DNA of 40,969 nucleotides from Proteromonas lacertae. Its lineage: Eukaryota. Position numbers and translations under genes: made by a program. The notes beneath the pieces are model-generated. The model saw nothing but the letters and a program-made list of their open reading frames with translations. It did not search any database and was not told where the DNA came from. Positions 6,374-40,712 of the stretch are shown here, piece by piece; the stretch's first letter is position 1, and each line of letters starts with the position of its first letter. The DNA is taken from the NCBI GenBank assembly GCA_002245135.1, contig NGBS01000904.1, forward strand, positions 1-40,969. The letters are read 5' to 3'.

Positions 6374-8394
6374 ATGAAAATGAGAGTAATAAAAGGTGTT
6401 GCTGATAATGGGTATGATATATATGTATGATATATAATAGACTATATTCAAAAATGATGAATGAAGGGTATAACGACATAGTTTTGATGATTGAGAATGA
6501 AGAAATCCCTTCCATTTCTTCGATTTTATGTGTATCGAATGAAAGATTGAAAAGTTTGATAAAAGATGAAAAAGCTGAAGAGAAAGTGTTACTTCCTGAT
6601 CAAGTGACAAAGAAAGCGTTTTCATTGTTATGTGATTATTATGGATATGGAATAGTAGAATTAGAAGAATCAAATGTTGTAGAATTGTTGTTATGTTGTG
6701 TTTGTTTAAATGAAGAAGATTTATTAAATGAATGTATTATATTTATAGAATGCCATCTAAACAACGGATTGGTGATTGAAATACTGAATAAGATAGATTA
6801 CATTCCCAATAATTTAGTAGATTTTCGAAATAGAGTAAATGATTATATTCGATTGAATTGTGCTTGCTTATTTGATGATACAAGAATATTTAAAAGATTA
6901 ACTCTCGATAATTTAAAGTATATCATTACTCTTGAAGACTTATTGATTCCAAGTGAGAAATACTTATTAGAAAAGATATTAAACCACTATCATAAGAATA
7001 ATGAAAAAATGGAGAATAAAGAAGAAGAATATAATGATGTGATGAAATATTTAAACTGGAAAGTTATTAGGAATGATGAATTAGAAGAAAAAGATTTGGA
7101 TATAATCGATATGAATATAATGAAAAAAGCAATATTCAAAAGTTCAATAAAAAGAAAATATGGAAGAATTCCAAAAACGAATAATGCATTATTGAATGAA
7201 ATGATATTGAATGGATTTAAAGATATTGATGTTATTAAAAGAATGTTATGTATAATATTATACATTATTAATATTATATTATATTAAATAGATGAAGATT
7301 ATGAATGTTTATTATCCACTGAAAATATAAAAGAAGAAATAAGCAATTACTTAAAAGAAATTAAATATGTATTAGAAATACTAACAATATTAAGAATAAT
7401 GAAAAGAATGGATATAAAAAAGAATGATTTAACTCTTAATGATGAAGAGCTAAATGATATAATAGAATTGTTGACAGAGAAGTATAAAGAAAATAGAGAA
7501 GAAGAAAAGAAAATGACAATAGAATGTTTATCATATTTCATAGATGGTAATATATTTTCTAAAAAATATAATGATATAAAACCGTTGATTGAATCAATCC
7601 CTAAATCAATAAGATATTTAATTCTAACAGAAATGTTAAATGATAAGCAGATTGAAGATAAAACCAATATAATTAAATATGTTGCAAATGATGATGATGA
7701 AAAAGAAAAGCAATTGATAATATCAAATGTAGATGATGAAGAAATTAAAGAAATGATAATATCAAAGAGTTATATAATATCAGTTGATATAACTATAGAT
7801 GTATTGAGATATATATGTGATTTAGTAATTATTGAAAACGTTTTAAAGAAATCTGAAATGATTAGAATAAAGAATGAAAATCTAGTTAATGAATTTAAAA
7901 AGAAAGCGTATGAAAGATTTGGTGTAACAGAAGAAGAAATGGAAAGAGCCATATCAGAATATGCTGATGTGAAAGTAGTAAAACATTATTTAATTTTAAT
8001 AAATCACATATCAGATAAACCACCAGAATGTGAAATACCAGAAGTTTTAACAAAAGAAGTTGTATTGGATATTAATAAAGAATGGTTTTCAAATATGATA
8101 AAAGTGATGGAAGGACAATTAAATGAAATGGCTAAACAAAGAAACATTTCAATAGAAGAGTTTAAAAATATTATTAACGAAGATAAAAACTTGAGTAATA
8201 GTATAGCAACAAAAATAGTAGAAAAAGGATTAGATTGTCACTATAACACCCTTAAAAAGCACAATATTACTTTGCTTGAATTTATCAATGCAAATAAAAA
8301 ATATGAGTATGATCTTATATTTGATATAAAAATACAAGAAATGAAGGAAAGATTTTTATCAGAAATGAATATGTTGAGAAAAATGATGTTATAA
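6374..8394 (+). CDS. BTB/POZ-BACK domain protein, tandem paralog with a different C-terminus
   Basis: N-terminal part is clearly similar to the 3209 gene (SSILCVSN, LPDQ.TK.AFSLLCDYYGYG, LLIPSEKYLL, ENKEEEYN). Introns at 6412-6440 and 7250-7291 lie at the same positions as in the paralog. Confidence 0.85.
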
Positions 8395-23269: not shown

Positions 23270-23553
23270 TTATTATAATATATTATTTAATATATTCATC
23301 TTGTTTATGTTTACTAGATGTATTAAGTAATAAATGAAAATGAATAAACAATAATTGAAAATATAGTTGTTTTATTTGAGAATATATATATATTTCTTTT
23401 ACAATTCTCTCTTTTCTTTCCATATTAATGGATGATTTTAAATGTTTAAATATTGAAGATTTTCATTTACTAATTTGACAATACTATTCAGATTTCTCCT
23501 ATATTATAACATAATAATTAAAAATGGATGAATAGAAATCAAGCTTGTATATA

Positions 23554-23610
23554 GTATATAAATGGGACTCTGACACTTGTACCATAGTCCCATTTACGTA
23601 AGGTTCCTAC
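23554..23610 (+). repeat. Left TIR of element A with internal 11-bp inverted repeat
   Basis: GTATATAAATGGGACTCTGACACTTGTACCATAGTCCCATTTACGTAAGGTTCCTAC is the reverse complement of 30905-30962 with 1 mismatch and 1 indel. TAAATGGGACT (23559-23569) pairs with AGTCCCATTTA (23586-23596). Confidence 0.95.
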
Positions 23611-23683
23611 TGTGTCAACTTCCCTATGAGACGATCTAGAGTCTCTTGCTGCGCTGGTAACAAGTTACCAAATGGTAACTCCG

Positions 23684-24123
23684 GGAGGTTCTAGCTAGTT
23701 GTGGATTTCTCAAGGCCCTTGAAGATAATGATTAGCAATCTCGGAAGGCTTCTGAAGGTAAGTTTTATCATCCTTATAACTCTCCTAGATAAGTTCATCC
23801 ACGACCTTCCCGAGAAGAACAGCCTTGTTGGCAAGGAAGGAATCTCCCATCATGAGAGATTCCCTGACGTAGTCATGCACGGCTGGACGTATCTGGGAAG
23901 GTCTTGATGGTTCTTCTATTAATCAGTGACTTTACAACTGGAGGTTCTGGTTAGTACTGGATTTTCTCAAGGCCTTGAAGATCATCGTAAGTATTCTCGG
24001 AAGCTTCCTAGAGGTAAGTCTAATCGCCCTTGTTAATCAACTAGGTAACATTCAATTATCATCTATCCTAGCAAGGAAGGGATGTTCCTCCTTGAGTTGT
24101 AACTCAAGGAGGAACCTCCCGAC
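23684..24123. repeat. Two diverged ~185-bp direct repeats rich in palindromes (23684-23868 and 23940-24123)
   Basis: Collinear shared blocks GGAGGTTCT, TGGATTT, CTCAAGGCC(C)TTGAAGAT, TCTCGGAAG, AGGTAAGT and GCAAGGAAGG. Each copy ends in a hairpin. Confidence 0.8.
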
Positions 24124-24359
24124 AAAGCCATGGAACTTCCATCAAAAGACTTCATTGCAAAGCCAAGGAACATCCACAGATTGTTGACTGAGTAAATTTC
24201 AATACCATTCTAAGTCTTCAAGATAAGCTACTTCTGGTAATCGTGGAAACTCAAAAGGGAATCTCAAGAGTTAACAATTGTAAAGACCTTCTTAACAATC
24301 TCCGATGAGTTCAATATTCCAGCAATTCCTATCGATCTAAGCATACAGCAATAATAATT

Positions 24360-25881
24360 ATGCAACCTTACAATCCCTTTAGAGTCGTGGCTGAGCATCA
24401 TGGAGATGACAAGAGCAACCTTACTCAGGAGATGTTCAATAGCTACTGGGATAAGAAGATGGAGCTCTTTGAAGCAGTACGAGATGCAGTAAAGGATTAT
24501 AAGGACGTAGTTGATTACACCTTGGGGAAGTTCAAGGAGTCTAAACAACCAGCCGATGAAATCAACACCTTAGAGACTCTTGCACTGGATCTAAGCAAGT
24601 ATCTGGAGTTCACTGCTAGCTATCGTGAGTTGATAACATGGAGCAAGACTTCTATCGATGATCCAGATCTGAAGGACTGTGGATGGATACCTCCGATAAG
24701 CTACTCTTCAATCATTCCTTTATGGCAGTCAAGACACTTTATCAATAACCCCAACTACAAGGCAATTAAAGTTGCAAGGAGATGGACGATGATGATCTAC
24801 GATAGTTTCATCGACTGGAGCTATTGCCATCTTAAAATCTTAAAGGATGTGTATTCCCGATATCAACCAGACTCAAGTAGGTTCAACCCGAAGGATTATA
24901 GAGCTCCTTACCCGATAGAACTACCTGTACTTGGTTGACATTGGTTTATTCGATAAGGATGGTAATATGCGAGATGCTTTCTCAGCAAGATCAATCAAGG
25001 GAAGATTCATCCAGCTTACTCCCTATGATGTTCCTAACTTCATGAGCAGGACAATCAAGAGACCGATGCTAGAGCAGTACCTTAGCAGGTTTAATATCTA
25101 TGGCTTATACACACGATCCCGTAAGGCCTTTAAGAAATGTCAAGAGAAGATCAAGGAGCTGATAACTCAATACCGAAACAGTCCCGAACTGATAGAAGAA
25201 GTACCAGAACTACTTCTTTTGGAGGATCTCAAGGAGCTGACAATACCTCAGTTCATCGAAGAGCTCAAGGAGGTAAAGGTTGTTGAAGAGCGCATCGAAG
25301 CTAGGCATACTCCATCATGGTGCTTAACTCAAGTGAAGAGCATTATAAGGAACGTGTTGAAGCTCCGATCAGCATTGAAGGCGATCCAAGAACCCAACTA
25401 TCGATGCTCGGAGAAGTATAAGAGATTCTACGATGGGATGATCAACTTAAAGTATTTCACTGCAAAGTATTTAAGCAATCTCCTGGAGTTCAAGATCAAG
25501 GTCGAGGACTATGCCGAGATGTATGATTACTATCACTGGGAGAACCACAACAAAAAAGAGAACCACTTCACGGAGGAAGACTCTGATGAGTTGATGAAGG
25601 ATGCTAGCAAGATTGTTAGTGAAATGAAGGAGCAAGAACAACTCGAAGAGTTCAACAGCACCAAGGAAGAGACCTCAAAGGACATGAAGCTGGAGACTTT
25701 AATCTCAGAAGCATTATCAGTAGTCAATAACCCCGTGAGGTCGGAGGAATTACAAGGGCAAGTCACCTGTGAGCTAACATCAACACCCAAGGAAGATGAG
25801 GACATAGTCACCAAGAGAAGCAGAAGCTCCTCCGAGGATGTAGAATCGCCTAGCTCAAAGAGACCAGAACTTAATCATTAA
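24360..25881 (+). CDS. Orphan protein(s) of element A; ORFs of 192 aa and 316 aa, probably one ~506-aa gene split by a +1 frameshift at ~24930
   Basis: The ORFs overlap by a few bases, the second has only a TTG at the junction, and codon usage is uniform (AAG/GAG-rich). The C-terminus is acidic/basic with NLS-like KRSR...KRP. Confidence 0.6.
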
Positions 25882-26085
25882 ACGCTAAGTCATAATAAGC
25901 AACTGTTGTCCTAGCTGTGATCAAGATAACATAAAGGAGCAAACGAAGAAGAAGAAGAAGTGAAGTTAGAAGACCTCGGAAAAGTTCATGATTGGAATCA
26001 TCGGAGAAGTCTATGATCGGATTCTACGTGAAGTGAAACACCTGGTAGCTATCAGTTTTTAATTTCCAAGTACTTCTCAGGAAGT

Positions 26086-29000
26086 ATGAAGAGATCATTA
26101 CCTAGCGATAATACTCCAGCAAAGAAGCAAAGGACTTCAAGGAGCCCGAGAAGAGATCGCGCAGTAGTTCCACCGATGGTTAATGATCCAAGAGCATTAC
26201 CTATGGATCAGAGAGTTTTCAACATGCATGAGAAGGAGTTGTCTTCCATGGAGTACTCTAGGGTAATCCAGATGGAGACTCCTCAAATGACCTTAAGAGA
26301 TAATCCAGAAGCCTTCGTCAATCAACTATGCTATGGCAATGAACCATTCTACGATAGATTGGAGCAGATACTGACTGCTCATGTGAACCTCAAAGTAAGC
26401 ATCACATTGATTTGTACCTTCGAAGAGACCGCAGGCACCAACAAGATCTATACTGTCAAGTGCGATACATTCCCAATCAACAACTTCATCGATAGGAAGA
26501 GCATCCAGGATCTATTCCAAGCAGCGATTCATGATAAGCTCAATAAGGACTTAGCTCAAGAGAAGTCAGGGATGATCTTCAAGACAATAGATGGGGTCAA
26601 AGTAAAGCTAGCAGTCTTTGATAGCATGCAAGGAGGATGTTGTAGGATCCCGAAGTTGCCTGAGTTTATTGCTAATAAGAAGTGTTGTTGTACAGTAAAG
26701 AACACTGACGATCGATGCTTCCTTTACTGCATCGTGATGTTCTTAAAACCTTCCTGTGGTACTAATCCTAATCGTCCGAAGCAATATGAACCCTTCCTAT
26801 CCATGGTCGATGATAGCATGTTAACCTACCCAATGGACTTAGACTTCCATCATAACAAGATTCAACAGTTCCAGAAGAAGAACCACCTTACCATCTCCAT
26901 CTTCGGTCTTAAGATCATCAATGAGGAGTCAAAGAAGGAGAAGAACCATATCCATTGCGTAGCTCCAATCTACTTACCGAAGATCGATAAGCACTTAAAC
27001 TACCCCCATGTGAATCTATTCTATCATGAAGGTCACTTCTGGTTAGTCAAGAGTCTCAGCGCCCTTATGAAGAGATCGTACTCCAAAGACACCGGTAAGA
27101 AGAACCACAACACTTACTTTTGTTGTCCTTACTGTTGCTCGGGAACAACTTCCTTCCGGCAGTTCCTTACTCATCAAAGTTATCCCTGCCAGAAGCTTAT
27201 CAAGTACCGTATCAAGAGAGAGTTCCCTGACTCAAACGATTATGAGAAGAGCCATTGCTTCTTTAAGCACTACAAGAACATGCAATACATCCCCATTGTC
27301 ATCTACTACGATACCGAGGTCTATTTCAAGAAGGTATCCCACGTTGATGCAGATGGTAATGCCTTAAACGAAAGCAAGACTGAGGAGTCCAAGAAGTCCC
27401 TTCACGTATTATACAGTTATCATATCCTTGTGTGGAGTAGAGTCGATGACTTCCCTTCAAGGTGCATTGAAGGCAAGAAGACAAGTCCCGATCAGAACTT
27501 AGAAGAAGAGCTAGTGAGTCAGTTCCTATTGATCGGAGAGTTGATTGAGGACTATTATCGAGAGATCAGTGATAAGCCAAAGGTGATGAGAGTAACTAAG
27601 GATGATCAGGCAGCTTTTAATGAAGCAACTAACTGTGCCTTCTGTGGTGAGTTGTTTACCAAGGAGAACTATAAGGTAAGACATCATGATCACTTCACCG
27701 GTAAGTACATCGCAGCCTTATGCAATTCCTGTAACACAGCTTGCCAGATTGCTTATATGAGAATCCCGGTGATAGCCCACAATGCTAAGAACTACGATCA
27801 GGCATTCATCCTACGAGAGTTAGCTAAGAGATGTCAAGTAGATGTGATACCAAAGTCCGATGAGAAGTTCCTTAGCATATCAACCTTACGATTGTCCTTC
27901 ATTGATAGCTACTGCTTCATGTCCTCTAGCTTAGAGTCTCTTACAGAGTGCTTACATCGTCAGGCAGTCCAGTCCGGGGACTTCAAGAAGTACTTTGCCC
28001 TGGTGTTCTATGTGATGAACCAGATCAAGGGATATGATGAAGAGTTGATCAAGACTTACCTCATGCAGAAGAACTACTTCCCTTATGAGTATTGTGATGA
28101 CTTAGCCAAGTACGATGACCCAGAGTTACCACCACAAGAAGCTTTCTACTCAGAGCTCAATATGAAAGGAATCAATGAGGAGGAGTACAACTTTGCCTGT
28201 GAAGTGTTTAAGAAGTTCAAGTGTCAGTCCTTAGGTGATTACAACATGCTTTACTTAGCCGTCGATGTTGGCATCCTAGCAAGTGTCTTTGAGAACTTCC
28301 GTAATGTTATCCTCGGAGGGTTCCAGTTAGATCCAGCCTGGTACATCTCTGGTCCTAGTTTATCATGGGATGCATTCCTCCAGCATGAGCACATCAGCAT
28401 CCCCTTGATCTCCGAGGAAGACATCTACGACTTCTTCATAGCTGGCCTTTACGGAGGTATCTCATCTATGGGAAGTGAAAAGTATAGCACTAGTAACAAC
28501 AAGTATCAGAACAACTACGATCCATCGGAGCCTTCTACTTATATCATGTACAATGACTACAATAGCTTATGCCCATCCACGATGTCCTCCAGCAAGTTAC
28601 CATGTGGAGATTTCAAGTTCATTGCCACGACCGATGAAGTCATTCAAGAAATCCTCTCGAAGCCTTATTACGATGACATGTCTATGAAGGAGTTCAAGGA
28701 GCCAGGTAAAGGATACTTCCTCGAAGTCGATATCGAGTGTCCGAGAGAGCTTCATGATAAGTTCAAGGAGTATCCTTTGTTCCCAGAACGAAAGACAATC
28801 GCTTACGATCAGCTATCACCGACTCAGCAGGCATTAGCTCAAGAGCATGGATTGGTGCTAACAACAGAGGATGGTAAGATGACCATGAAGGTAAAGACCG
28901 AGAAGTTGATCTGCGATCTCACCCCTAAGAAGAATTACGTAATCCATAATCAGGCACTTAAGTATGCAGTTGAACAAGGTTATAAGATACAAGGTGTCCA

Positions 29001-29994
29001 TCGTGTGTTGGAGTTCACCGAAGAACCTCTGATGAAGACCTTTGTGGATGATATGATCCGATACCGAGTAGATGCAAAGAAGAGCAATCGTACTGCCGAT
29101 AGTGATACTTATAAGCTATTGTTGAACTCCATCTATGGTAAGAGCTGTGAGCGTAAGGAACGACGATCCAGCATCAAGATAGCCTGCTCCGAGAAGACCT
29201 TTAAAAAGTACGCTAGCAGCAACTGGTTCGATACCTTCAAGAACTTAGATGAAGAAGATCCAGATCTCCGATTATGTTATTTCAATAAGTCCGCCTGCTT
29301 CATTGACATGCCCATCTTCCTCGGTACATCAATCTTATGCTTATCGAAGTTGAAGATGCAAAGGTTCTGGTATGATGTTCTCTATCCCTTGTATGGATCC
29401 TCCTTGAAGTTGCTTATGACTGATACCGACTCCTTGCTTTATAAGTGTCAGACTGAAGACATCTATCGAGATATTATGGAGCATAAGCAGTTCATGAGGA
29501 TGATGGACACTGGCAATCTCAACGTTGACATCTTAAGGGATAGAGGAATCGTCTATGACAATTACAAGGACACTGGCAAGTTGAACTTATTGAAATGTGA
29601 AGAGAACAAGAATGGTAAGCTTTATACAATCACTCAGTTCGTCGGAATTAAACCAAAGATGTATGCTTACGAGAAGAGTGAAGCTTCTTCCGTCTACGTG
29701 GAATGTGATAGCCGTGCAAAGGGACTCAATAAAGCCTTAAGAGAACAGAAGAACTTTGACGTCTACTTCAAGACTCTCTTCAACATGCTACCCATGGAGG
29801 ATATGAATTGTAAGACCAGGAACTTCCGTGTCCTCGATCAGCACATCTACACCGTAGAGACCACCAAGAGAGTCTTCACTCCCTTTGATGATAAGAGGTA
29901 CTTTATCGATCACATTAGAACATTGCCTTATGGGCACTACTCAATACTACCGAAGGATCAAGAGGATGATGATGATTTCAATGAGTTGTGGTGA
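26086..29994 (+). CDS. Protein-primed family B DNA polymerase (Polinton-type: terminal protein, vOTU-like protease, Zn finger, exonuclease with inserted endonuclease VII-like HNH, polymerase)
   Basis: ExoI YYDTE, ExoII HNAKNYD, ExoIII YLAVD; Pol motifs DYNSLC, KLLLNSIYGK, MTDTDS and KPKMY; C-terminal FDDKRY...TLPYGH typical of Polinton pPolB; NTDDRCF...HF and CAFC...HHDHFTG...LCNSCN. Confidence 0.95.
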   Translation: MKRSLPSDNTPAKKQRTSRSPRRDRAVVPPMVNDPRALPMDQRVFNMHEKELSSMEYSRVIQMETPQMTLRDNPEAFVNQLCYGNEPFYDRLEQILTAHVNLKVSITLICTFEETAGTNKIYTVKCDTFPINNFIDRKSIQDLFQAAIHDKLNKDLAQEKSGMIFKTIDGVKVKLAVFDSMQGGCCRIPKLPEFIANKKCCCTVKNTDDRCFLYCIVMFLKPSCGTNPNRPKQYEPFLSMVDDSMLTYPMDLDFHHNKIQQFQKKNHLTISIFGLKIINEESKKEKNHIHCVAPIYLPKIDKHLNYPHVNLFYHEGHFWLVKSLSALMKRSYSKDTGKKNHNTYFCCPYCCSGTTSFRQFLTHQSYPCQKLIKYRIKREFPDSNDYEKSHCFFKHYKNMQYIPIVIYYDTEVYFKKVSHVDADGNALNESKTEESKKSLHVLYSYHILVWSRVDDFPSRCIEGKKTSPDQNLEEELVSQFLLIGELIEDYYREISDKPKVMRVTKDDQAAFNEATNCAFCGELFTKENYKVRHHDHFTGKYIAALCNSCNTACQIAYMRIPVIAHNAKNYDQAFILRELAKRCQVDVIPKSDEKFLSISTLRLSFIDSYCFMSSSLESLTECLHRQAVQSGDFKKYFALVFYVMNQIKGYDEELIKTYLMQKNYFPYEYCDDLAKYDDPELPPQEAFYSELNMKGINEEEYNFACEVFKKFKCQSLGDYNMLYLAVDVGILASVFENFRNVILGGFQLDPAWYISGPSLSWDAFLQHEHISIPLISEEDIYDFFIAGLYGGISSMGSEKYSTSNNKYQNNYDPSEPSTYIMYNDYNSLCPSTMSSSKLPCGDFKFIATTDEVIQEILSKPYYDDMSMKEFKEPGKGYFLEVDIECPRELHDKFKEYPLFPERKTIAYDQLSPTQQALAQEHGLVLTTEDGKMTMKVKTEKLICDLTPKKNYVIHNQALKYAVEQGYKIQGVHRVLEFTEEPLMKTFVDDMIRYRVDAKKSNRTADSDTYKLLLNSIYGKSCERKERRSSIKIACSEKTFKKYASSNWFDTFKNLDEEDPDLRLCYFNKSACFIDMPIFLGTSILCLSKLKMQRFWYDVLYPLYGSSLKLLMTDTDSLLYKCQTEDIYRDIMEHKQFMRMMDTGNLNVDILRDRGIVYDNYKDTGKLNLLKCEENKNGKLYTITQFVGIKPKMYAYEKSEASSVYVECDSRAKGLNKALREQKNFDVYFKTLFNMLPMEDMNCKTRNFRVLDQHIYTVETTKRVFTPFDDKRYFIDHIRTLPYGHYSILPKDQEDDDDFNELW

Positions 29995-30146
29995 GACCAG
30001 TAACACGCATAAGCTCATAGCTTTTACTATCAACGAGTGTTTAGGGTACTTGTAAAGTCACTGGAGTAAGAATCATCGGAGATAGCTAGTTGGTCTTTTC
30101 CTTGTCATTCAAAGAGCTACTTACAATCACCCACAATTACTTATCA

Positions 30147-30644
30147 ATGGAAGCCATCGGTAACAACTTACTCCAGACCGTAGATTGCCCAAGTGATAAC
30201 AACTACCCGAAGTTACCATCAGAGAATGAAAGGCAAGTGTTAGAGATGTGGATGAACAGGGCCGAGCAGATCTATCATTCCCTGGTCAGTGGAGAAGCAC
30301 GTATACTCTACGATGAAGCAATCTCTCGTTATTGTAAAGACGAGATCATCAGTAGTAGCTTCGGAAAGGCTTACAACCTCTTGGACACTTGCGAGAAGAT
30401 TAACATGGAGAGTTGTCTTGGACAAGGTGCAATGATAAGAGACTTAAGGCATCGACTCAATTAAGAGAACGAAGTGTACCTTGTAGGCAATTCAATTAAG
30501 AGAAAAGCATCTCTAGGAAGCTACTTGAAGGATAAGAGACGTAGACTTAACAAGAGCAAGGAGTCTTCCTCTGACGATTCCTCCTCCTTCTCTGAGAAGG
30601 ATGAGGAATCACCGGAGGAAGACTTTACCGAGGACAATGCTTAA
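30147..30644 (+). pseudogene. Orphan ~165-aa ORF of element A interrupted by one TAA (30462-30464)
   Basis: After the TAA the same frame continues ENEVYLVGNSIKRKASLGSYLKDKRRRLNKSKESSSDD...EDNA*, with a bipartite NLS-like motif and an acidic tail. Confidence 0.55.
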
Positions 30645-30904
30645 CCAACACCCCCAAGAAGCCAAAGTAAATGATCTTAAGATAATCAACCTCCTACATT
30701 CATTCTCTAGTCTTTGTAAGGGGGGTAATAGAAAACATAGCTTCATCATCCCGAGATAACCATCACTTCTAGATAGCTTCCAGGAGTCCCCGTAGGAGAT
30801 CGTCTCATAGATAGATAGATATAGGTAGGTATAGAAATAGCTTAGAGGAGTTCCAGTAAGGAAGTAGACCCCGTTGAGAAGTAGACCCTGTTGGGAGGAA
30901 TCCC

Positions 30905-30962
30905 GTAGGAACCTTACGTAAATGGGACTATGGTACAATGTGCCAGAGTCCCATTTATATAC
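30905..30962 (-). repeat. Right TIR of element A
   Basis: GTAGGAACCTTACGTAAATGGGACTATGGTACAATGTGCCAGAGTCCCATTTATATAC, an inverted copy of 23554-23610. Confidence 0.95.
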
Positions 30963-30968
30963 TATATA

Positions 30969-33900
30969 ATAATGATATACCAATAATCAGCGATACATTC
31001 TTTGGTGGATTAATGCCTTCTTCCCTACCAAAACCTAACCAAAATCAAAGATTTAATGATAGAATACGTGATGCTAGAGAAGTTGATAAATCATCTCAAG
31101 GTGTTACCAGGAAATGGGTTTTCAATTATAACAATAGAAATTACAGTACATTACAACAATGTTATCATGATTTTGTTAATAATAGTGATATCAAAGATAT
31201 ATTACATGAACTAGCTGATACTATGAATATGATCAAATTTTTCTTTATTGTACGTTCAATTTATATACCTGATGAGTCTACTGACAGCGATGATGAAGTT
31301 TCTATATTTAGTCGTAGTAGACTATGTGAAATAACAAAAATGTCTACTGTAGGTGAAATACAAACTATACTGGAGAATATATTTACACAAATATCAGAAG
31401 ATGATTCAAATCATCCTCAAAGTGGTCTTACTTTTGCTAGAGTAAATACTATTGAATTATATGTAACAAAATTTAAAGTGATACGTGGAAGTAGTTTTAT
31501 TGTTTTACCTGCAAAATTTCAAGGTCTTAGATGTTTAACAAATGTAATAAATGAAGATAATGAATGCTTTAAGTGGAGTGTACTATGTTCATTATATTCT
31601 AATAATCTACAATGTAATAAAGATAAACCTGAAAAATACAAAATGTATGAAAAGAAACATGATTGGAGTATGTTAACATTCCCTGTTGATGCTACAGACA
31701 ATGAATCTATTGATAAATTTGAAACAAAGAATCGACTAAATGTGAATATATTTTATATTGATATTGCTAAAGATAAAGAAGAAATATTCTTACCCATTCA
31801 TTTATCTAAACAAAAGAAATCTAAAAAATATAGTGTTGTAAATCTATTGCTAATAAAAAATGAAGATGGAAATTCACACTATTTAACAATAAATGCCTTA
31901 CCTGCTTTATTTAGAAAAATGATAGATAAAAAGAATAATACTAATAATATATTTATGTGTCCATACTGTCTCTTCTATACTTACGATGATGGATCCTTTA
32001 ATAGTCACCAAATATATGACTGTCAAGATAAAGAGAATGTATTAAGATTATTCCCTGATAAAGATGATAAAGAAAAATCATACTTAAAATTTAGGCATTG
32101 GACTCACCTCCAAACATTGCCAGTTGTTATGTATTATGATACTGAAACTTATTTTGTACCATATGATAATGAATTGAATTTAAGTAGATATAAATCTATG
32201 GAAGAAATAGATGATAATGATACTAGAATAGAATTATCAAAAACTGAGCAATCTATTATGGCTAGGCATAAGCTTTATTCCTACTGTATCTATGTAAATA
32301 GTAAAATACCAGATATAAACAGTTTTACTGTGATTAAATATAAACAAAATGAGGATCATAATATTGAAAATGATTTTGTATTGGATATATTAAATATATA
32401 CGATCAAATATGTACAGTTTACAATTACAGACTAGCTAATCCTAAACCTTTTGATGGAGATGAAATAGCTAAGGATATACATAATAAAAAGAGAAAATGT
32501 GACTTTTGTGGTAAACCATTTAATTCTATTGATCATGTAAAGGTACTACACCATGATCATTTCACAGGTCATTTATTGCTTCAATTGGTAGTAATGAGAA
32601 TCTAAATATTGATATAAAAAAATTAAAAGTACCAATAATAGGTCATAATGCTATGAAATATGACCAGCATTTCATAGTAAAGGAATTAGCCAAATTTGCT
32701 GCAATAACTAATAGCCCACTCAATATTATACCTAATACAGATGAAAACTATAAGTGTATACAATACAAGAATTTGGTGTTTATTGACAGTTATTTATTCT
32801 TAGCAGGTTCTCTAGCAAATTTAACTAGTGATCTAAAAATTACAGCAGAATTAAATAATACTAAGAAAGAAAAATTCAAAACAATTTATGAGAATTTTAA
32901 AGAATATAATGGACATTACCTAGATGATGAAATTATTGAAAAATACTTACTTCAAAAGAATTATTTTCCATATGAACATATGACATCTCTTGAAGCTTTT
33001 GAAGAAAATTTCAAAGATCTTACTATAGATGATTTTAAGTCTAAATTGAATGATAATGAAACTATTAAACCTGAAGAATTTGATTTTGCTATGGAAGTAA
33101 ATCAAATATTTGGATTTGATAATATACGTGAATACAATTTATTTTACTTGAAAATTGATGTTTATATTCTTCAGTCTATATTTAATGATTTTAGAGATAA
33201 TATATTTGATACTTTTCATATAGATCCTTGTTGGTATATTTCATTACCCAGTTTATCACTCGATTTATTCTTGCATGTATCTGATGTGGAACTTAAATTA
33301 TTTTGTGAACCTGAATACTATGATTTTATATTGAATGGTTTATACGGTGGATTATCATATATTGGTAAGCGTAAGGAAGATGCAAATAACAAATTTATGA
33401 AAAATTATGATGAAACTTTACCTAGTAAATTCTTATTATATCAAGACTATAATTCTTTATACACTTCAGTTATGGCTTCTTGTAAAATGCCTTTAGATGA
33501 CTTTGAATTTATTGATCCAAATTCTATTACATTAGAAAGTATACTTGATTTACCATATTATGAAGAAATGGATCAAGATAGATTGGAGAATAATGATTTT
33601 GGTTATATATTAGAAGTTGATATTGACTTACCTATAGAACTACAAGACAAGTTTAAAGAATACCCATTGTTACCTGAAAGGAAGAAAATACCTAAAGAAT
33701 GGTTATTTGATATACAAACTGAAAGAGCTGAAAATCTTGGTATTATACATAAAGAAAGAGGTACTTACCATGCTACTGAGAAATTAATAACTGATTTGTA
33801 TCCTAAAGAAAAATATATAATACACTACCAAAATTTGAAGTTTGCAGTTGAACATGGCTATAAAGTGGGTAAAGTGTACAGAATAATGAGATTTACTGAA

Positions 33901-34372
33901 GGTCTATATATGGGTAAATATATTAATACTATGGTACAAAAAAGAGTCCAAGCTAAAGAAAACAATCAAAATACTACTGCAGACTATATAAAGAAATTAA
34001 TGAATAGCTTATACGGTAAATTTATGGAACGTGTTGAAAAGAGAAGTAACATATCTTTAATTACTAATGAAGATCAAATGATTAATGCTGCAAGTGATCC
34101 ATGGTTTAAAGACTTTATCATTATTGAAGGTGATTTAAGAATTGCACATTTTCATAAGAAGCTATATGAAATTAATAAACCTATACAAATTGGAATGGTT
34201 ATCTTAGCACTGTCTAAACTCAAAATGCAAAAATATTGGTATGATGTATTGGATAAAAAATATGGTTCTGATAAGCTAACACTATGTATGACTGATACTG
34301 ATAGTATACTTTTCTCAGTTGAAACTAATGATATTTTTAAAGACTTAGAGGATCCTAATAATAATGAAAGAA
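30969..34372 (+). pseudogene. Element B: AT-rich Polinton-type pPolB, frameshifted at ~32570 and truncated after motif C
   Basis: Collinear with pPolB A: IRGSS, NEDNECFKWS...HY, CPYC, YYDTE, CDFC...HHDHFTG, then a 1-nt deletion (GGT CA TTT ATT GCT) before ...PIIGHNAMKYD, DYNSLY, KKLMNSLYGK and MTDTDS. Homology stops at ~34370; the KxY motif and C-terminus are missing. Confidence 0.9.
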
Positions 34373-34455
34373 AGGGGGAAATAGCACAGTGTGCCATTTC
34401 CCCCTATGGTTTTTTGATTCAAAAAAAGATCCGTTTCAATGTGTGCCATTTCCCC
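34373..34455. repeat. 33-bp palindrome plus a repeat of its right arm (putative terminus of element C)
   Basis: AGGGGGAAATAGCACA-G-TGTGCCATTTCCCCCT (34373-34405, 1 mismatch); GTGTGCCATTTCCCC recurs at 34441-34455. Confidence 0.85.
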
Positions 34456-34609
34456 ATATTGTTTTTTCATCATTAGAAACGTTTTTAATGCATAATAAAT
34501 ATATCAATCGATTTCTCTATTTATGCTGGGCTCATATATGCCCTTAGTTTGACTTTCTGATCATAATCGAAATTTAATTTTCTTAAAAAAATTCAAAAAA
34601 CAATGATAG

Positions 34610-34661
34610 ATAGGATGGCCACTATACTGTGTGATATGACACCATATAGTGACCATCCTAT
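34610..34661. repeat. Subterminal hairpin (17-bp stem)
   Basis: ATAGGATGGCCACTATA (34610-34626) pairs with TATAGTGACCATCCTAT (34645-34661) with 1 mismatch; inner GTGT/ACAC pairing. Confidence 0.85.
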
Positions 34662-34834
34662 ATCAAATAAAACAAAATATAGAGTTCAAGCCAAATCACT
34701 TTTGAAACGCATCTATTTTTCTATTATTGATATTTCTTATAAGACTTGTTATAATGCTAATTAATTATGTAAATTATGAAAACAACACTCCCACACAAAC
34801 ACAATATATCATTTGAACCAATTAGGACCAGAGA

Positions 34835-35793: not shown

Positions 35794-37080
35794 ATGTTTA
35801 GCACTAATAGTTACGATCCACATTTATACAGCTCATATAGCAACCAAAACCCATATCCTGTCAAACCGTTACCTACAAATGGTAACTTATCACTTGCAAC
35901 ATATATTAACCATGGAGCACCGAATATTACACATCCAACAAGAGAGGCTTCGTATGAAGACCAAATGTCAAACCAAATTGCCCAATATCGATCACGCTTA
36001 GATGAACTATATAAAAAATATTATTACCTTAATGAAAATGAATTTATCAAAATGACACAACATTTGTCTAGTATAAATGATATAGCTCCACCACCAGATG
36101 TAGTACGTGAATACTTAAGGAGACAACCTGGAAAACAAATTGTTGATTTCAAATATAAAAAAAATAATCCATTCGCAACTATCAAAAAGCCTGGGTACTT
36201 CCAAATGGATATAGTGTTTTTCTTACCTGATATGGAACATTTGTATTTTATCGAAATGAATTCAAGAAAAGTATGGGCAATATTTATGCCTAATAAATAT
36301 GGTGATATTACATTGGATGCATTTCAGAAGTGGTATTATGAAACAGATGCCTATGGAAACAAAACACATAAAAATGTGGTAAGTATCCTATCAGATGCTG
36401 ATGCTAGTTTTTCAAATATCAAGAAGTTATGTGATGCTGAAGGAATATCATATTTTCAAAAAGATGGTTCTGAGCATAAAATAGAGTCATTATTGGATAG
36501 ATCAGTGAGTGTGATAAAAAGATTGTTGTACAAACACTTGGTGGATCTGGGATATGATGCACCTACATATATGGCAGATATTGATCACAATGATAAGCAT
36601 ATTATACCAGATATGAATTATAAATTAAAACTCGATAGTATAATACAGGAAGTGATAGATGACTATAACAACAAGCCATTACCAGGAATTAAAGGATATA
36701 CACCAAATGAGGTATTCCATAGTCCAGAATTACAAAAACAAATATTACAAAAATCAATTAACTACAACTTAAAGAATTATGAAAAATTGGACCATACTGG
36801 TCAAAATTTCGAAGTAGGTGATTTGGTGAGATTCAAAGAGAGAAGACGTAAAATGGATAAGAACATATACTGGTCAGACAATGTATATAAGATAATCAAG
36901 AAAAATCGATATTCATACAATTTAGGTGATATCAATGGGAATGACATTCAAGGTTTTTCATTAATTCGATTCAAACACTATGAGTTGCAGTTAGTGAGAA
37001 AAGATGATGCACCAACCACATGGTTTAGAAAAATACTGGAGAGACCCAAGAGAAAGAAGGGAGACAAATCAATATTGTAA
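35794..37080 (+). CDS. Polinton-type retroviral-like (rve) integrase
   Basis: FQMDIV (D1), ILSDAD (D2), SLLDRSVSVIKR (third acidic position), YNNKP...IKGYTP and C-terminal FEVGDLVR...WSDNVYKI...Y.L.D..G..I.G...ELQLV as in Polinton integrases. First ATG used. Confidence 0.88.
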   Translation: MFSTNSYDPHLYSSYSNQNPYPVKPLPTNGNLSLATYINHGAPNITHPTREASYEDQMSNQIAQYRSRLDELYKKYYYLNENEFIKMTQHLSSINDIAPPPDVVREYLRRQPGKQIVDFKYKKNNPFATIKKPGYFQMDIVFFLPDMEHLYFIEMNSRKVWAIFMPNKYGDITLDAFQKWYYETDAYGNKTHKNVVSILSDADASFSNIKKLCDAEGISYFQKDGSEHKIESLLDRSVSVIKRLLYKHLVDLGYDAPTYMADIDHNDKHIIPDMNYKLKLDSIIQEVIDDYNNKPLPGIKGYTPNEVFHSPELQKQILQKSINYNLKNYEKLDHTGQNFEVGDLVRFKERRRKMDKNIYWSDNVYKIIKKNRYSYNLGDINGNDIQGFSLIRFKHYELQLVRKDDAPTTWFRKILERPKRKKGDKSIL

Positions 37081-37131
37081 CGAATAAATTTTTATTATGT
37101 TATATATTGTATATGTTGTTTTATTATTATT

Positions 37132-37328
37132 GGGCATTGGATAGACTAGCTACGATGAGGGCTGCGTTTCTAATTTATAATTATTTATTTATTTATTTAT
37201 TAAATTAATTTCACAAGGAATTTATGGAAGTTTAATAATTTCTACTTGGATGTGTGTTGTTTAATATTGCGCCATTGAAATTCGGCTTGAATCATCCTGG
37301 CACGGTATATCTAAATGCCCTTTTTTTT
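37132..37328 (+). ncRNA. Putative Pol III panhandle ncRNA 1 (VA-RNA-like, ~190 nt)
   Basis: 5' and 3' arms are complementary: GGGCATT/AATGCCC, GGATA/TATCT, GCTA/TGGC, GATGA/TCATC, GGGCTG/CGGCTT. Degenerate B-box GGCTTGAATCA (37284-37294), followed immediately by T8. Confidence 0.6.
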
Positions 37329-37336
37329 ATTTAATT

Positions 37337-37431
37337 GGGATCTGATAGACTGTGCAAGGAAAAAAGAGTCATGCAGCTGGCATTAGTGGTTCGATTCCTA
37401 GCACAGACTATTAGTAATCCCATTTTTTTTT
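37337..37431 (+). ncRNA. Putative Pol III panhandle ncRNA 2 (VA/vault-RNA-like, ~85-90 nt)
   Basis: GGGAT/ATCCC, CTGATAG/CTATTAG, CTGTGC/GCACAG and AGGAA/TTCCT pairings; perfect B-box GGTTCGATTCC (37388-37398); T9 two bases after the closing CCC. Confidence 0.72.
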
Positions 37432-37493: not shown

Positions 37494-37901
37494 ATGCTTA
37501 CACTACCACCACAGATTGAATATAAATTACCAGAACTTGAATCCAAGGTAACAAAGAAATATCATTTAAGTGGTCCAGACATATACTTGGATTTGTATAG
37601 CCTACAATTCCTTATATTTTTTTATTATCGAAAACCTATATATCAATGGTATTTTGAGTTAACACACAAAATGATTAACATGATCATGAGTCAACGTTTG
37701 ATATTAGTGTTTGTAGGTCCTTGTGACTTAGGAAATAGAGATTATCCGAAAGTTACATATACACCAACAATGAAAAAAGTAATCATTAGAATGCCACAAA
37801 GATGTTTTAATGGTAAGATGCCAATATTCTTCAAATGTACTCATATGGATAGAGAGATGATAGAATATATTGAAACTCATACAATATTTCACCACACATA
37901 A
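37494..37901 (+). CDS. Hypothetical protein, 135 aa
   Basis: ATG-initiated ORF between very AT-rich spacers; no motif recognised. Confidence 0.5.
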   Translation: MLTLPPQIEYKLPELESKVTKKYHLSGPDIYLDLYSLQFLIFFYYRKPIYQWYFELTHKMINMIMSQRLILVFVGPCDLGNRDYPKVTYTPTMKKVIIRMPQRCFNGKMPIFFKCTHMDREMIEYIETHTIFHHT

Positions 37902-37961: not shown

Positions 37962-40712
37962 TTATATTAATCCAAATTGTTTTTTCATTAACCTAATTTT
38001 TGCTTCACCCACTATTGTATTATAGTCAGTAGCCTTTTTGAAACTACACTGATCTCTTAAAATATTTTTCAAAAAATTAATAGCAAAAAAACCACAGTTG
38101 GCAGTATTTGAATTTTGATTCTGTACTCCATTGATTTTAAGTTCATACTTTTCATTATGATACTTCTTTAATTTTTTCAAATTTTTTTTAAATTCTTCCA
38201 AGTGTTGAGGATCTTCACCAAATGAATCATAGTACAGGAATTGTTTCTTGATATTGTCAACTACTAAGGCCACCCAATGACCTATAGAATCAGGGCTAGC
38301 TTGTGTGGTGAGTGTATTGATTATGATTCCCCATTGATTCTTCTTTTTGGGTATAGGAAGTACAAGCTCGTCCCAGCAGAACACTCCCATGAACTTTCCA
38401 TGGAAATTATTGAACTCATTTTTCACAATTAACTCTATATCAAAGTTCGATAAAGCATCTGAAGTGATACTGTTATACAAAACTTTCCTACGTGAAATTA
38501 ATTTCTTTACTTTTTTATTATTTCCATTACCTATTCCAAAGTAACTCATAGCTTCACTGAGTTGTTTTGCTTGATCTAAATTACTCACTGCTCTACCAAA
38601 ATTAGTGAGTGAACTTGGAATTGTTTGTTGTGAACGTTTCACGTAGTTATCCATTTTGATTGCATTCTTGTGTTGATATGGTGTTGGTTTTAACCAATTC
38701 AATAAACCACCTGCATCTAGCAAACCAAAACAAGCAGTCAATGCACTGAATACTGTTCCTATACCTGCAACAGTTTGTAATGTACCTGTTGGATCAGCTG
38801 CAACAGCAGTTTTTGCCATTGATGGCATAGCTTTTGATAATTCACTAATACCTTTAACTGCTGCTGCAGCAGTTGTTGCATCACCTCCATTTGCAGCTGC
38901 AGCTACAGTTGCTGCTGTTTTTAATGTATCACCTACATTTTTTGCATCTATATTTCCAATATTAGAAAATTTGTAGAAGAATGGAACTAATTGAAATAAG
39001 TATCGAACATATGGATGAGTATTGAACATAAATGAAACACCAAAGTTATACAACAAGTCTACAGGTAACCATGATTTTTGAATTGCTTCAGGTAACATTG
39101 ACTTAACTTTTTCTGAATTACCATAATACAAGTCAGTGATAGCAGGTAATCTACCACCTGACAGCATACGAATTATCTCATAGTAGTCGAAAATGAAGTA
39201 CCACATTACATACAAGAACCCTGATGTTGGTAGTTTAGATTTTTTCCATAACCAATAAGCTAAACATGTCATTACTATTGCACGAACATACTTCATTGCA
39301 TGATCTACTTCAAACATTTGAGGAGTAACTCCACCTACCAAATATGACTTCATTGTATAGTATATTTGTGGAAATATCCTAAATACATTCTCTACACACA
39401 GGAACAAATTACCAGCAAAACCCATAAAATCAGATTCACGTAATGAATCAAGTGCTTTTTGAAACTGTGAATTTTCAAATTGTGCCCATGAATTACAAGC
39501 AGTTTTCACTAAACCAATAGCTATTTCATATTTTTGTTTATTATCTGCATTCACCCACTCTTGAGGAAGTGAGTGACCTAACTTCTCTCTGTTATAATCA
39601 AAGTTAATGAAATCTCTACTATTTTGTGATGCTATTTCATTCAGTTCTCTATATTTATCTTCATTAATCCATGTATGCGGTTCTTTATCTATATCTATAG
39701 CACTATTCACCAGTTCTTGATTTTTTGGATCTAATGCCCATCTATAAAATTTTGATCTTTCTAATATCTCTTGATCATCCATATATCTTTGTGCCTTTTG
39801 ATTATTCAATGCAATATATTCTTTTACTTTTTCAGCTCGATTCGGATCAAAATTATATGGATCTGAATATTGATTGATCTTACTTACTCCATCAACTAAT
39901 TCATTTTGCAAATACTCCTGCTGTAATAATAGTTTGTTATAATATTCTATTGCATCTTTATCATTACCTGTTAATTTATCCCAAGTTGAGGTCAACCAAT
40001 CTTGTCTATAATTTTTATAGGCTGCTAATTGAGGATTCTTTTCTATAATCTCTTGCAATGATTTATAATTTTGTAATTTAGGAAATTTTTGTAACAAAGG
40101 ATCTGTAACTCTATTCATTCCATTATCATATGCCTGAACATCTGCTTCTGTAACATATTCAGGCCAATTCAAAAGATAGCTTCTTGGATTAGATGTATCT
40201 AATTCTGCTAATGGGAATGTTCCTCTTAAATGTCCTGTTTTATGTTCACGATCTAGCATATCATAAAAATTAATATGATAATTGTTAGGCAACATTGAAG
40301 CATAATTATTAGTTAATGCATATTGAACTTCTTTTCGAGCTTGTCTATTCAAACCTGGACTAAATAATTTATCATAATTCCAATTATAATCATATCCTAC
40401 AGTTTCTTTTGGTATATATGGTTGAATATATTCTGGTATTTGACTTGGCTGTAATTGTGATGTTCCATTATAAGCAGCACTAGCAGCATCATACATTTGT
40501 TGTCTTGGATTAGTAATAATGACATGCTCATTAGGACCAACACTTTGACCCACTCTTAATGGTATAATACCACTATTACCACCTAATTTCTTAGTAGCCA
40601 AGAGATGCCTCCGTGGGATATTCTCTAATTTTAGTTTATTTCTTCTGTTTATGTTTCTTATGTTTGAAATGAACATGTTTTCTTCTACCTGAACCTGTCT
40701 TTGGATATCCAT
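37962..40712 (-). CDS. 916-aa protein with C-terminal adenain/Ulp1-like cysteine protease (Polinton PRO) and a long unknown N-terminal region
   Basis: The last ~165 aa read FMGVFCWDEL...IINT...GHWVAL...YYDSFG...QNQNSNTANCGFFAINFL (His-Asp-Gln-Cys set). The upstream region has hydrophobic and Ala-rich helices. Confidence 0.85.
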   Translation of the reverse strand: MDIQRQVQVEENMFISNIRNINRRNKLKLENIPRRHLLATKKLGGNSGIIPLRVGQSVGPNEHVIITNPRQQMYDAASAAYNGTSQLQPSQIPEYIQPYIPKETVGYDYNWNYDKLFSPGLNRQARKEVQYALTNNYASMLPNNYHINFYDMLDREHKTGHLRGTFPLAELDTSNPRSYLLNWPEYVTEADVQAYDNGMNRVTDPLLQKFPKLQNYKSLQEIIEKNPQLAAYKNYRQDWLTSTWDKLTGNDKDAIEYYNKLLLQQEYLQNELVDGVSKINQYSDPYNFDPNRAEKVKEYIALNNQKAQRYMDDQEILERSKFYRWALDPKNQELVNSAIDIDKEPHTWINEDKYRELNEIASQNSRDFINFDYNREKLGHSLPQEWVNADNKQKYEIAIGLVKTACNSWAQFENSQFQKALDSLRESDFMGFAGNLFLCVENVFRIFPQIYYTMKSYLVGGVTPQMFEVDHAMKYVRAIVMTCLAYWLWKKSKLPTSGFLYVMWYFIFDYYEIIRMLSGGRLPAITDLYYGNSEKVKSMLPEAIQKSWLPVDLLYNFGVSFMFNTHPYVRYLFQLVPFFYKFSNIGNIDAKNVGDTLKTAATVAAAANGGDATTAAAAVKGISELSKAMPSMAKTAVAADPTGTLQTVAGIGTVFSALTACFGLLDAGGLLNWLKPTPYQHKNAIKMDNYVKRSQQTIPSSLTNFGRAVSNLDQAKQLSEAMSYFGIGNGNNKKVKKLISRRKVLYNSITSDALSNFDIELIVKNEFNNFHGKFMGVFCWDELVLPIPKKKNQWGIIINTLTTQASPDSIGHWVALVVDNIKKQFLYYDSFGEDPQHLEEFKKNLKKLKKYHNEKYELKINGVQNQNSNTANCGFFAINFLKNILRDQCSFKKATDYNTIVGEAKIRLMKKQFGLI

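Follow-up and report, generated by a model that had tools for sequence, protein, structure and literature searches.

A tandem pair of putative Pol III hairpin RNA genes in a probable Polinton-like element of a protist

The stretch of DNA analysed here, which is 40,969 nt long and as a whole is referred to as the window, contains two hairpin-forming units downstream of the integrase gene of a virus-like element, and the question raised by this locus is whether these units are genes for small RNAs and, if so, whom they would serve. An earlier note on this DNA had read them as RNAs of the Pol III type, similar to VA or vault RNAs and encoded by a Polinton-like element. According to our analysis, the unit pair is a real, non-random feature, and we estimate the probability that it represents two tandem genes for Pol III hairpin RNAs that are carried by the element at about 0.65, judging from sequence and predicted structure. 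Viral Pol III RNAs are described from few animal virus groups, namely adenoviruses, gammaherpesviruses, and some retroviruses (PMC4378190), and a literature search, with most subscription journals and supplements outside its scope, retrieved no such RNA for Polintons or Polinton-like viruses (PLVs).

Host DNA and three virus-like segments

The left 23 kb of the window are host DNA, which encodes BTB proteins and an intronless dynein heavy chain of 3813 aa in the standard code. The best relatives of this dynein are 60–61% identical, and named stramenopiles follow with 54–57%. In a FastTree phylogeny of 68 sequences (the window sequence and 67 of the 120 listed matches, compared over one region of 500 aa), the protein groups with Cafeteria, next to oomycetes and ochrophytes, and the internal support is weak. 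On this basis, the host is likely a stramenopile protist. A region of the host DNA that contains a BTB-BACK gene is duplicated in tandem; the two copies (3264–4326 and 6437–7506) are ~73% identical and lie 3.17 kb apart.

Downstream of the host DNA follow three abutting virus-like segments, A, B, and C. Segment A (23548–30968; 7.4 kb, ~42% GC) has 63-bp terminal inverted repeats and encodes an intact pPolB of 1302 aa with an endonuclease VII-like insert, alongside three ORFs without recognised function. Neither an integrase nor a capsid gene was recognised in this segment, no clear target-site duplication was found for it, and it is a minimal self-replicating element. Its subterminal non-coding regions contain long near-perfect hairpins (24079–24120 and 30559–30626), which are probably DNA-level signals because their stability is about equal on both strands. 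Segment B starts at 30969 and carries an AT-rich pPolB (31013–34347, within the region 30969–34350), which is frameshifted near 32570, shares 30–42% identity with the pPolB of segment A, and ends ~170 aa short, the matching part ending at 34347. A palindrome near 34365 marks the start of segment C, which extends past the end of the window. The pPolB of segment B is adjacent to segment C and may belong to a different element; alternatively, B and C could be one broken element instead of two.

Besides the two hairpin units, segment C contains two short ORFs, an rve-type DDE integrase of 428 aa, an ORF of 135 aa, and a protein of 916 aa. The integrase is encoded by an intact ORF (35794–37080, plus strand). 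It has no direct Pfam match; homologs collected with its profile match Pfam rve, and its residues D139 and D201 are invariant in alignment A2. The N-terminus of the protein has an extra ~60 aa, which are missing from more distant rve integrases. Since an AATAAA motif is located only 3 nt after the integrase stop codon (at 37083), the sequence suggests that the integrase mRNA ends ahead of unit 1, which begins 52 nt past the same stop. The 135-aa ORF (37494–37901, plus strand) lies directly downstream of the hairpin units; no Pfam, PHROG, PDB-sequence, or fold match was obtained for it, and its predicted structure has a mean pLDDT of 47.8. The 916-aa protein (37962–40712, minus strand) carries a C-terminal C48/C5 (Ulp1/adenain-type) cysteine protease domain of the maturation type (Pfam C48 E 2e-7, C5 E 2e-4), which sits behind ~740 aa of uncharacterised protein. 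In a search limited to proteins <503 aa, this domain had four homologs with 47–66% identity, three of which are proteins of ~190 aa, and one of which (301 aa, perhaps partial) has some upstream sequence in common with the 916-aa protein. Because the homologs are mostly short and one shares upstream sequence, this suggests that the 916-aa protein could be a self-cleaving polyprotein. Segment C thereby combines an rve integrase with an Ulp1/adenain-type protease, both of which are hallmarks of Polintons (PMC11161782), and by its gene content the carrier is probably a Polinton-like element of a protist. Capsid proteins and a packaging ATPase were not recognised by Pfam in the 21 ORFs scanned, with the element running off the window end.

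Layout, fold, and promoter signals of the hairpin units

Both units start with GGG and end with CCC ahead of a T run, just as described in the earlier note. Unit 1 (37132–37320, plus strand) is predicted to form a panhandle RNA of 189 nt and is directly followed by T8 (37321–37328), whereas unit 2 (37337–37421, plus strand) would form a bulged hairpin of 85 nt and is followed by one A and T9 (37423–37431). These T runs are the predicted Pol III terminators. The units share the 5′ motif GATAGACT, which starts at +9 in unit 1 (37140–37147) and at +8 in unit 2 (37344–37351), exactly where it had been placed before, and has no further occurrence in the window. They also share the 3′-arm motif TRGCACRG (37298–37305 and 37399–37406), which in each case begins at a distance of 23 nt from the stem end. 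The expectation that both would fold end to end was borne out by structure prediction. On the plus strand, unit 1 reaches −51.8 kcal/mol (z −3.57) and unit 2 −35 kcal/mol (z −5.67), and none of 200 shuffles each was as stable; on the minus strand, the corresponding values are −31 kcal/mol (z −2.16) and −28.9 kcal/mol (z −4.75), so that under RNA rules the plus strand folds better by 20 and 6 kcal/mol, respectively. The outer stem of unit 1 consists of ~35 pairs with pair probabilities mostly >0.9, and it encloses an AT-rich multibranch centre that includes an (ATTT)4 tract (37183–37198). The T4 run suspected near 37187, which might have truncated unit 1, turned out to be T3; the unit contains 11 T3 runs and not a single T4.

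Strong folding alone is common in these elements, as four other hairpins of the window reach z-scores of −4.7 to −6.5. Among the 651 runs of at least four T in the window, however, only 10 terminate a panhandle that folds end to end at less than −0.2 kcal/nt. In this set, unit 2 takes the first and unit 1 the fourth rank, and the other eight are located inside ORFs, so that no T-run-closed panhandle besides the two units lies outside an ORF, and none besides them has T8 or more. It is thus the combination of features, not folding by itself, that distinguishes the units.

Promoter elements were scored with A-box and B-box matrices taken from section 10 of PMC12498455, which are not derived from this lineage. 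The perfect B box claimed for unit 2 was confirmed: GGTTCGATTCC (37388–37398, plus strand) starts at +52, ends 23 nt ahead of the last C, agrees with the consensus GGTTCRANYCY, and with 16.7 bits ranks first among 81,918 positions of the window. A degenerate counterpart had been proposed for unit 1, and GGCTTGAATCA (37284–37294, plus strand) indeed ends 26 nt ahead of the last C; its score, however, is near background (0.4 bits, rank 329) and its function is doubtful, so that unit 1 would have a B box of the consensus type only if that of unit 2 serves it. The suggestion that GATAGACT acts as A box did not hold. The motif sits at the A-box position without matching an A box, the best scores within +5 to +25 being −0.4 and −1.3 bits, values reached by 2–3% of all positions with a matrix from another lineage, and no A box (TRGYNNARNNG) was recognised near +8 to +20 in either unit. 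The best A-box-like sites are the shared 3′-arm motifs, which have the wrong location for a promoter. An origin of GATAGACT from the anticodon stem of tRNA-Ser or tRNA-Leu was rejected too, as the partner strand is not in place.

Both units end at a run of at least four T without an internal T4, and in both of them the sequence TATAT, a putative TATA-like box, is located at exactly −31 (37101–37105 for unit 1 and 37306–37310 for unit 2, plus strand). In Pol III genes a TATA-like box is found at −31/−24; plants and fission yeast have a TATA box at −30/−24 in their type 2 genes, and an upstream box of this kind can offset a weak box A (PMC7279448). TATA[TA] occurs at 191 of 9,438 spacer positions (~2%), and two exact matches at −31 would arise by chance in ~4 of 10,000 cases, or in ~1 of 100 if two bases of slack are allowed; this coincidence was noticed post hoc. 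The TATAT of unit 2 lies within the 3′ arm of unit 1, and the differences between the two 3′ arms at positions 14 and 15 from the end fall within it.

How closely the units are related was assessed from their arms. The 3′ arms are alignable as claimed before, with one of 3000 shuffles scoring as well, and the 5′ arms align weakly (p 0.025). Of the outer 27 positions, 12 have the same pair in both units, 4 differ by two-sided changes and 2 by one-sided changes, and 9 pair in one unit only, which agrees with the observation that the terminal stems differ yet still pair; alternatively, a paired indel could account for the terminal changes. RNAalifold, applied to a MAFFT alignment, found three two-sided changes among 21 pairs, in a comparison of two sequences that were both chosen for folding and from which no statistical covariation is obtainable. 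The reliance on G-U pairs, which had been taken to favour RNA over DNA, is evident in the outer stems, as these contain 10 G-U pairs (7 of 35 pairs in unit 1 and 3 of 29 in unit 2) and no A-C 1x1 mismatch. Unit 1 consists of 40% T, and the T4 runs that it lacks are missing in only 0.2–0.5% of di- or trinucleotide shuffles, compared to 29–64% for A4. This T4-avoidance signal is moderate, because the share of T4-free shuffles rises to 2–4% without three microsatellite units and a spacer-based Poisson estimate gives 0.05–0.11.

Taken together, and with the TATAT at −31 in both units, the avoidance of T4, the G-U bias, and the paired changes as further evidence, the Pol III small-RNA layout proposed in the earlier note stands well for unit 2, which we consider likely to be a Pol III gene. 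For unit 1 it stands fairly, and the balance tips slightly in favour of a Pol III gene.

Relatives, RNA families, and competing explanations

The proposed likeness to VA or vault RNAs found no support in Rfam. At E up to 10, eight matches were obtained, all below the gathering score and none of them to VA RNA; no vault, Y, SRP, U6, or tRNA model was among them, and nothing in the window reached the gathering score. Membership in the VA RNA family was also rejected on the grounds of the missing GGGU-ACCC stem, the lack of a recognisable box A, and the different lengths, and membership in the vault RNAs for want of a model match. ARAGORN identified no tRNA genes, and the predicted folds are rods and not cloverleaves. 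A tRNA-derived SINE does not agree with the T runs, instead of A runs, that follow the units, and the only repeat around unit 2 is a 3-nt ATT. A blastn search of the units against the 41-kb window revealed no further copy and no target site better than E 0.09.

Relatives of the carrier could be identified in Logan assemblies. The integrase has six close homologs with 43–56% identity, in a clade seen only in these assemblies; these six, the next 10 that were looked up, and all four protease homologs are Logan-only proteins. On the strength of these protein matches, sister elements exist. Searches of metagenomes and viral contigs with the integrase, alone or as alignment A1, returned at least ~600 candidate stretches, among which no relative was confirmed. 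The same applies to the integrase in prokaryote genomes and to the pPolB of segment A and the protease alignment in viral contigs. A scan of viral sequences for GATAGACT combined with a B box gave 85 matches, and 21 of the 35 loci run through ARAGORN overlapped a tRNA or tmRNA; none of the distinct viral matches listed has, by eye, the GGG...CCC-Tn form, and a motif scan with the 3′-arm pattern gave no matches. In metagenomes, 24 matches were found in 23 loci, 16 of which overlap called tRNAs, mostly tRNAs for Leu and Ser, in which GATAGACT is part of the anticodon stem. None of these loci scored at E up to 5 with model R1, which was built on two sequences and a gappy alignment and gives rough E-values. 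A blastn search against phage records yielded no match.

Four loci with distant integrases (L086–L089; 59 kb with 1,800 runs of at least four T) all lack a B-box panhandle, which is a weak negative. Seven closed panhandles were found, all of them in L089, and none has a B box with fewer than two mismatches. Because such a unit is missing from these four loci, the hairpin unit is not universal, and the loci are too distant to count against it. Of 19 ORFs scanned over the four loci, pPolB, integrase, and ATPase were recognised in L086 alone. In L088, a small viral contig, a TET-associated glycosyltransferase (1429–2508, minus strand; Pfam TAGT E 2e-27) is encoded near the integrase.

Several alternatives to element-borne RNAs directed at RNAi have to be considered. 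Host Pol III genes, either of a vault-like or uncatalogued small RNA or in the form of a tRNA-derived short repeat, could have been captured or inserted and would then ride along without serving the element, a scenario that we consider unlikely. It would account for the layout of unit 2, whose B box close to the 3′ arm, paired ends, and T run fit host type 2 genes, and for the ATT on both of its sides. The B box of this unit is also tRNA-like in its start at +52, the position given by tRNA numbering. In addition, vault genes share little sequence apart from boxes A and B (PMC7058938), and Rfam could miss one. However, besides the negative Rfam and ARAGORN results, neither an A-rich tail nor a clear target-site duplication was found around unit 1 or the pair, and the ORFs on either flank are intact. 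Moreover, the pair looks co-adapted in its sequence, because the TATA-like box of unit 2 lies in unit 1. Somewhat less likely again are cis elements that act at the DNA level and yield no functional RNA: the units would be imperfect palindromes or a worn MITE-like insertion, and the B box a TFIIIC site by which the integrated element is insulated or positioned. B boxes can act as insulators, and the single strong B box without an A box would agree with this role. Several strong palindromes are indeed present among the elements of the window, and in Halocafeteria, virophages and PLVs have been reported to carry palindromes at their ends (10.64898/2026.07.28.741278). However, the decay of a DNA palindrome would be expected to produce A-C mismatches as well as G-U pairs, and the observed split has a chance of 0.5^10 (~0.001), though folding by RNA energy favours G-U. 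Furthermore, the units fold weakly under DNA rules (−14.9 and −15.8), their conserved letters are on one side of each helix only, and the T runs, the T4 avoidance, and the TATAT at −31 all share one direction.

Alternatively, the hairpins might form the 3′ end of the integrase mRNA or stabilise it. Giant viruses and virophages use hairpin polyadenylation signals, unit 1 follows the integrase stop closely, and another hairpin with a T run stands behind a 142-aa ORF of the same segment (see below), so that hairpin and T run may be the general end signal of the element. Neither the perfect B box nor the TATAT at −31 nor the duplicated GGG start is accounted for by this explanation, the AATAAA directly behind the integrase stop and the presence of two tandem units, which would be unnecessary, also speak against it, and we regard it as improbable. 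We give no more credit to element-borne Pol III RNAs with a task outside RNAi, such as decoys that bind proteins, or RNAs with a structural or packaging role in the virus particle. Their promoter and fold evidence would be identical to that for RNAs directed at RNAi, bulges every 4–7 pairs and motifs conserved on one side only suit the binding of proteins, and EBERs and VA RNAs act largely via protein partners (PMC4378190). The neighbouring 135-aa ORF, however, gave no fold as a candidate partner, and the conserved part of the units is a stem with the length of a Dicer product.

Possible mode of action and further hairpins

With regard to function, a role of the units as element-borne Pol III hairpin RNAs that face host RNAi as dsRNA mimics or Dicer substrates falls just short of an even chance in our estimate. 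From the gene layout and the predicted fold, transcription, processing, and function can be inferred as follows. The single strong B box, located at +52 in unit 2, would be bound by TFIIIC, and TFIIIB would occupy the TATAT found at −31 in both units. Pol III would initiate at the G run and terminate at T8 or T9, releasing RNAs of ~190 and ~90 nt. Unit 1 might borrow the downstream B box of unit 2 in the style of the yeast U6 gene, where the B block lies ~200 bp downstream (PMC5855946); the B box of unit 2 is located 248 nt past the 5′ motif of unit 1. The promoters would then be interlocked, with the 3′ arm of unit 1 supplying the TATA box of unit 2 and the B box of unit 2 driving unit 1. The function would reside in the shared outer stem of ~27 pairs, and the AT-rich centre of unit 1 would be an expansion that is tolerated. 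In both units the shared 3′ motif starts with U 23 nt from the stem end, a feature noticed post hoc, and a cut ~23 nt from the end would yield 3′ pieces that begin with this U at TRGCACRG. Similarly, the terminal stems of VA RNAs are Dicer substrates from which pieces of 21–23 nt are released (PMC7589676), and bovine leukemia virus (BLV) makes Pol III pre-miRNAs (PMC4378190). The hairpin RNAs may thus tie up the Dicer-type silencing machinery of the host as dsRNA mimics, or be cut by it. Because blastn gave no target in the window, a decoy or a target elsewhere fits. That a protist PLV itself encodes a tandem of Pol III RNAs which serve as RNAi decoys or as precursors of guide RNAs, and this with an interlocked promoter, is a more tentative proposal.

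Among known systems, VA RNAI and VA RNAII of adenoviruses are similar in forming a tandem pair in a Preplasmiviricota-type genome, with a G start and a T-run terminator (PMC7589676, PMC4378190), and in having an internal B box, as does unit 2, and paired ends that form a terminal stem. In contrast to the units of 189 and 85 nt, VA RNAs are ~160 nt long. VA RNAs have box A in the terminal stem and box B in the apical stem; in unit 2, box B lies in the inner stem, and box A was not recognised. Neither tetramer of the GGGU-ACCC tetranucleotide stem described for VA RNAs (PMC7589676) is present in either unit, and the host is likely a protist. The label "VA-like" of the earlier note is therefore apt as an analogy and does not extend to the GGGU-ACCC stem, a recognisable box A, or an Rfam match to VA or vault RNA. 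Adenovirids have been argued to descend from polintons (PMC11161782); the likeness is probably convergent rather than homologous. The Pol III pre-miRNAs of BLV and foamy viruses also are short clustered hairpins in an integrating element, with ends defined by where Pol III initiates and terminates, as would apply to the units, and with degenerate internal promoter boxes (PMC4378190, PMC12498455). Unlike these, the units are located in a DNA virus-like element and not in a retrovirus, their stems are more bulged, and unit 1 is much longer. By analogy, the units would work like VA RNAs or BLV pre-miRNAs without belonging to those families. Vault RNA genes resemble unit 2 in size, paired ends, and a B box near the 3′ arm, with little sequence conservation to be expected (PMC7058938), but the units are inside a mobile element and have neither an A box nor an Rfam match. 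The SNR6 gene of Saccharomyces cerevisiae offers the upstream TATA and the B block past the terminator that we propose for unit 1 (PMC5855946). This likeness is confined to promoter layout; the RNA is not a relative of U6, and the B box further downstream is part of a second gene.

If the units indeed are element-borne Pol III genes directed at RNAi, a Polinton-like element of a protist would possess a counter-defence or regulatory RNA, and the VA RNA strategy would recur in Polinton-lineage viruses far outside animals. Such genes would also hint at nuclear, host-driven expression and would mark the element as one that host enzymes transcribe in the nucleus; how most PLVs replicate is not known (10.64898/2026.07.28.741278). 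A B box combined with a closed panhandle and a T run would then provide a simple search pattern for thousands of endogenous elements.

Segment C contains further hairpins. A possible third unit, which is a lead only, is located at 34603–34665 on the minus strand, 171 nt past the stop of the 142-aa ORF on that strand, and consists of 26 pairs followed by T6 and T7. Model R1 scores this hairpin at 30.9 bits. A B-box-like pseudo-palindrome stands ~20–30 nt upstream of it (8.1 bits on the plus strand, at 34683) and has GGCTTGAA in common with the degenerate B-like site of unit 1. The hairpin may represent either an additional small-RNA unit or the end signal of an mRNA. Segment C presumably has its left end at 34374–34455, which consists of a palindrome and a direct repeat and carries TAGCACAG, which is identical to the 3′-arm motif of unit 2 and lies 9 nt into a G-started hairpin that is followed by T6.
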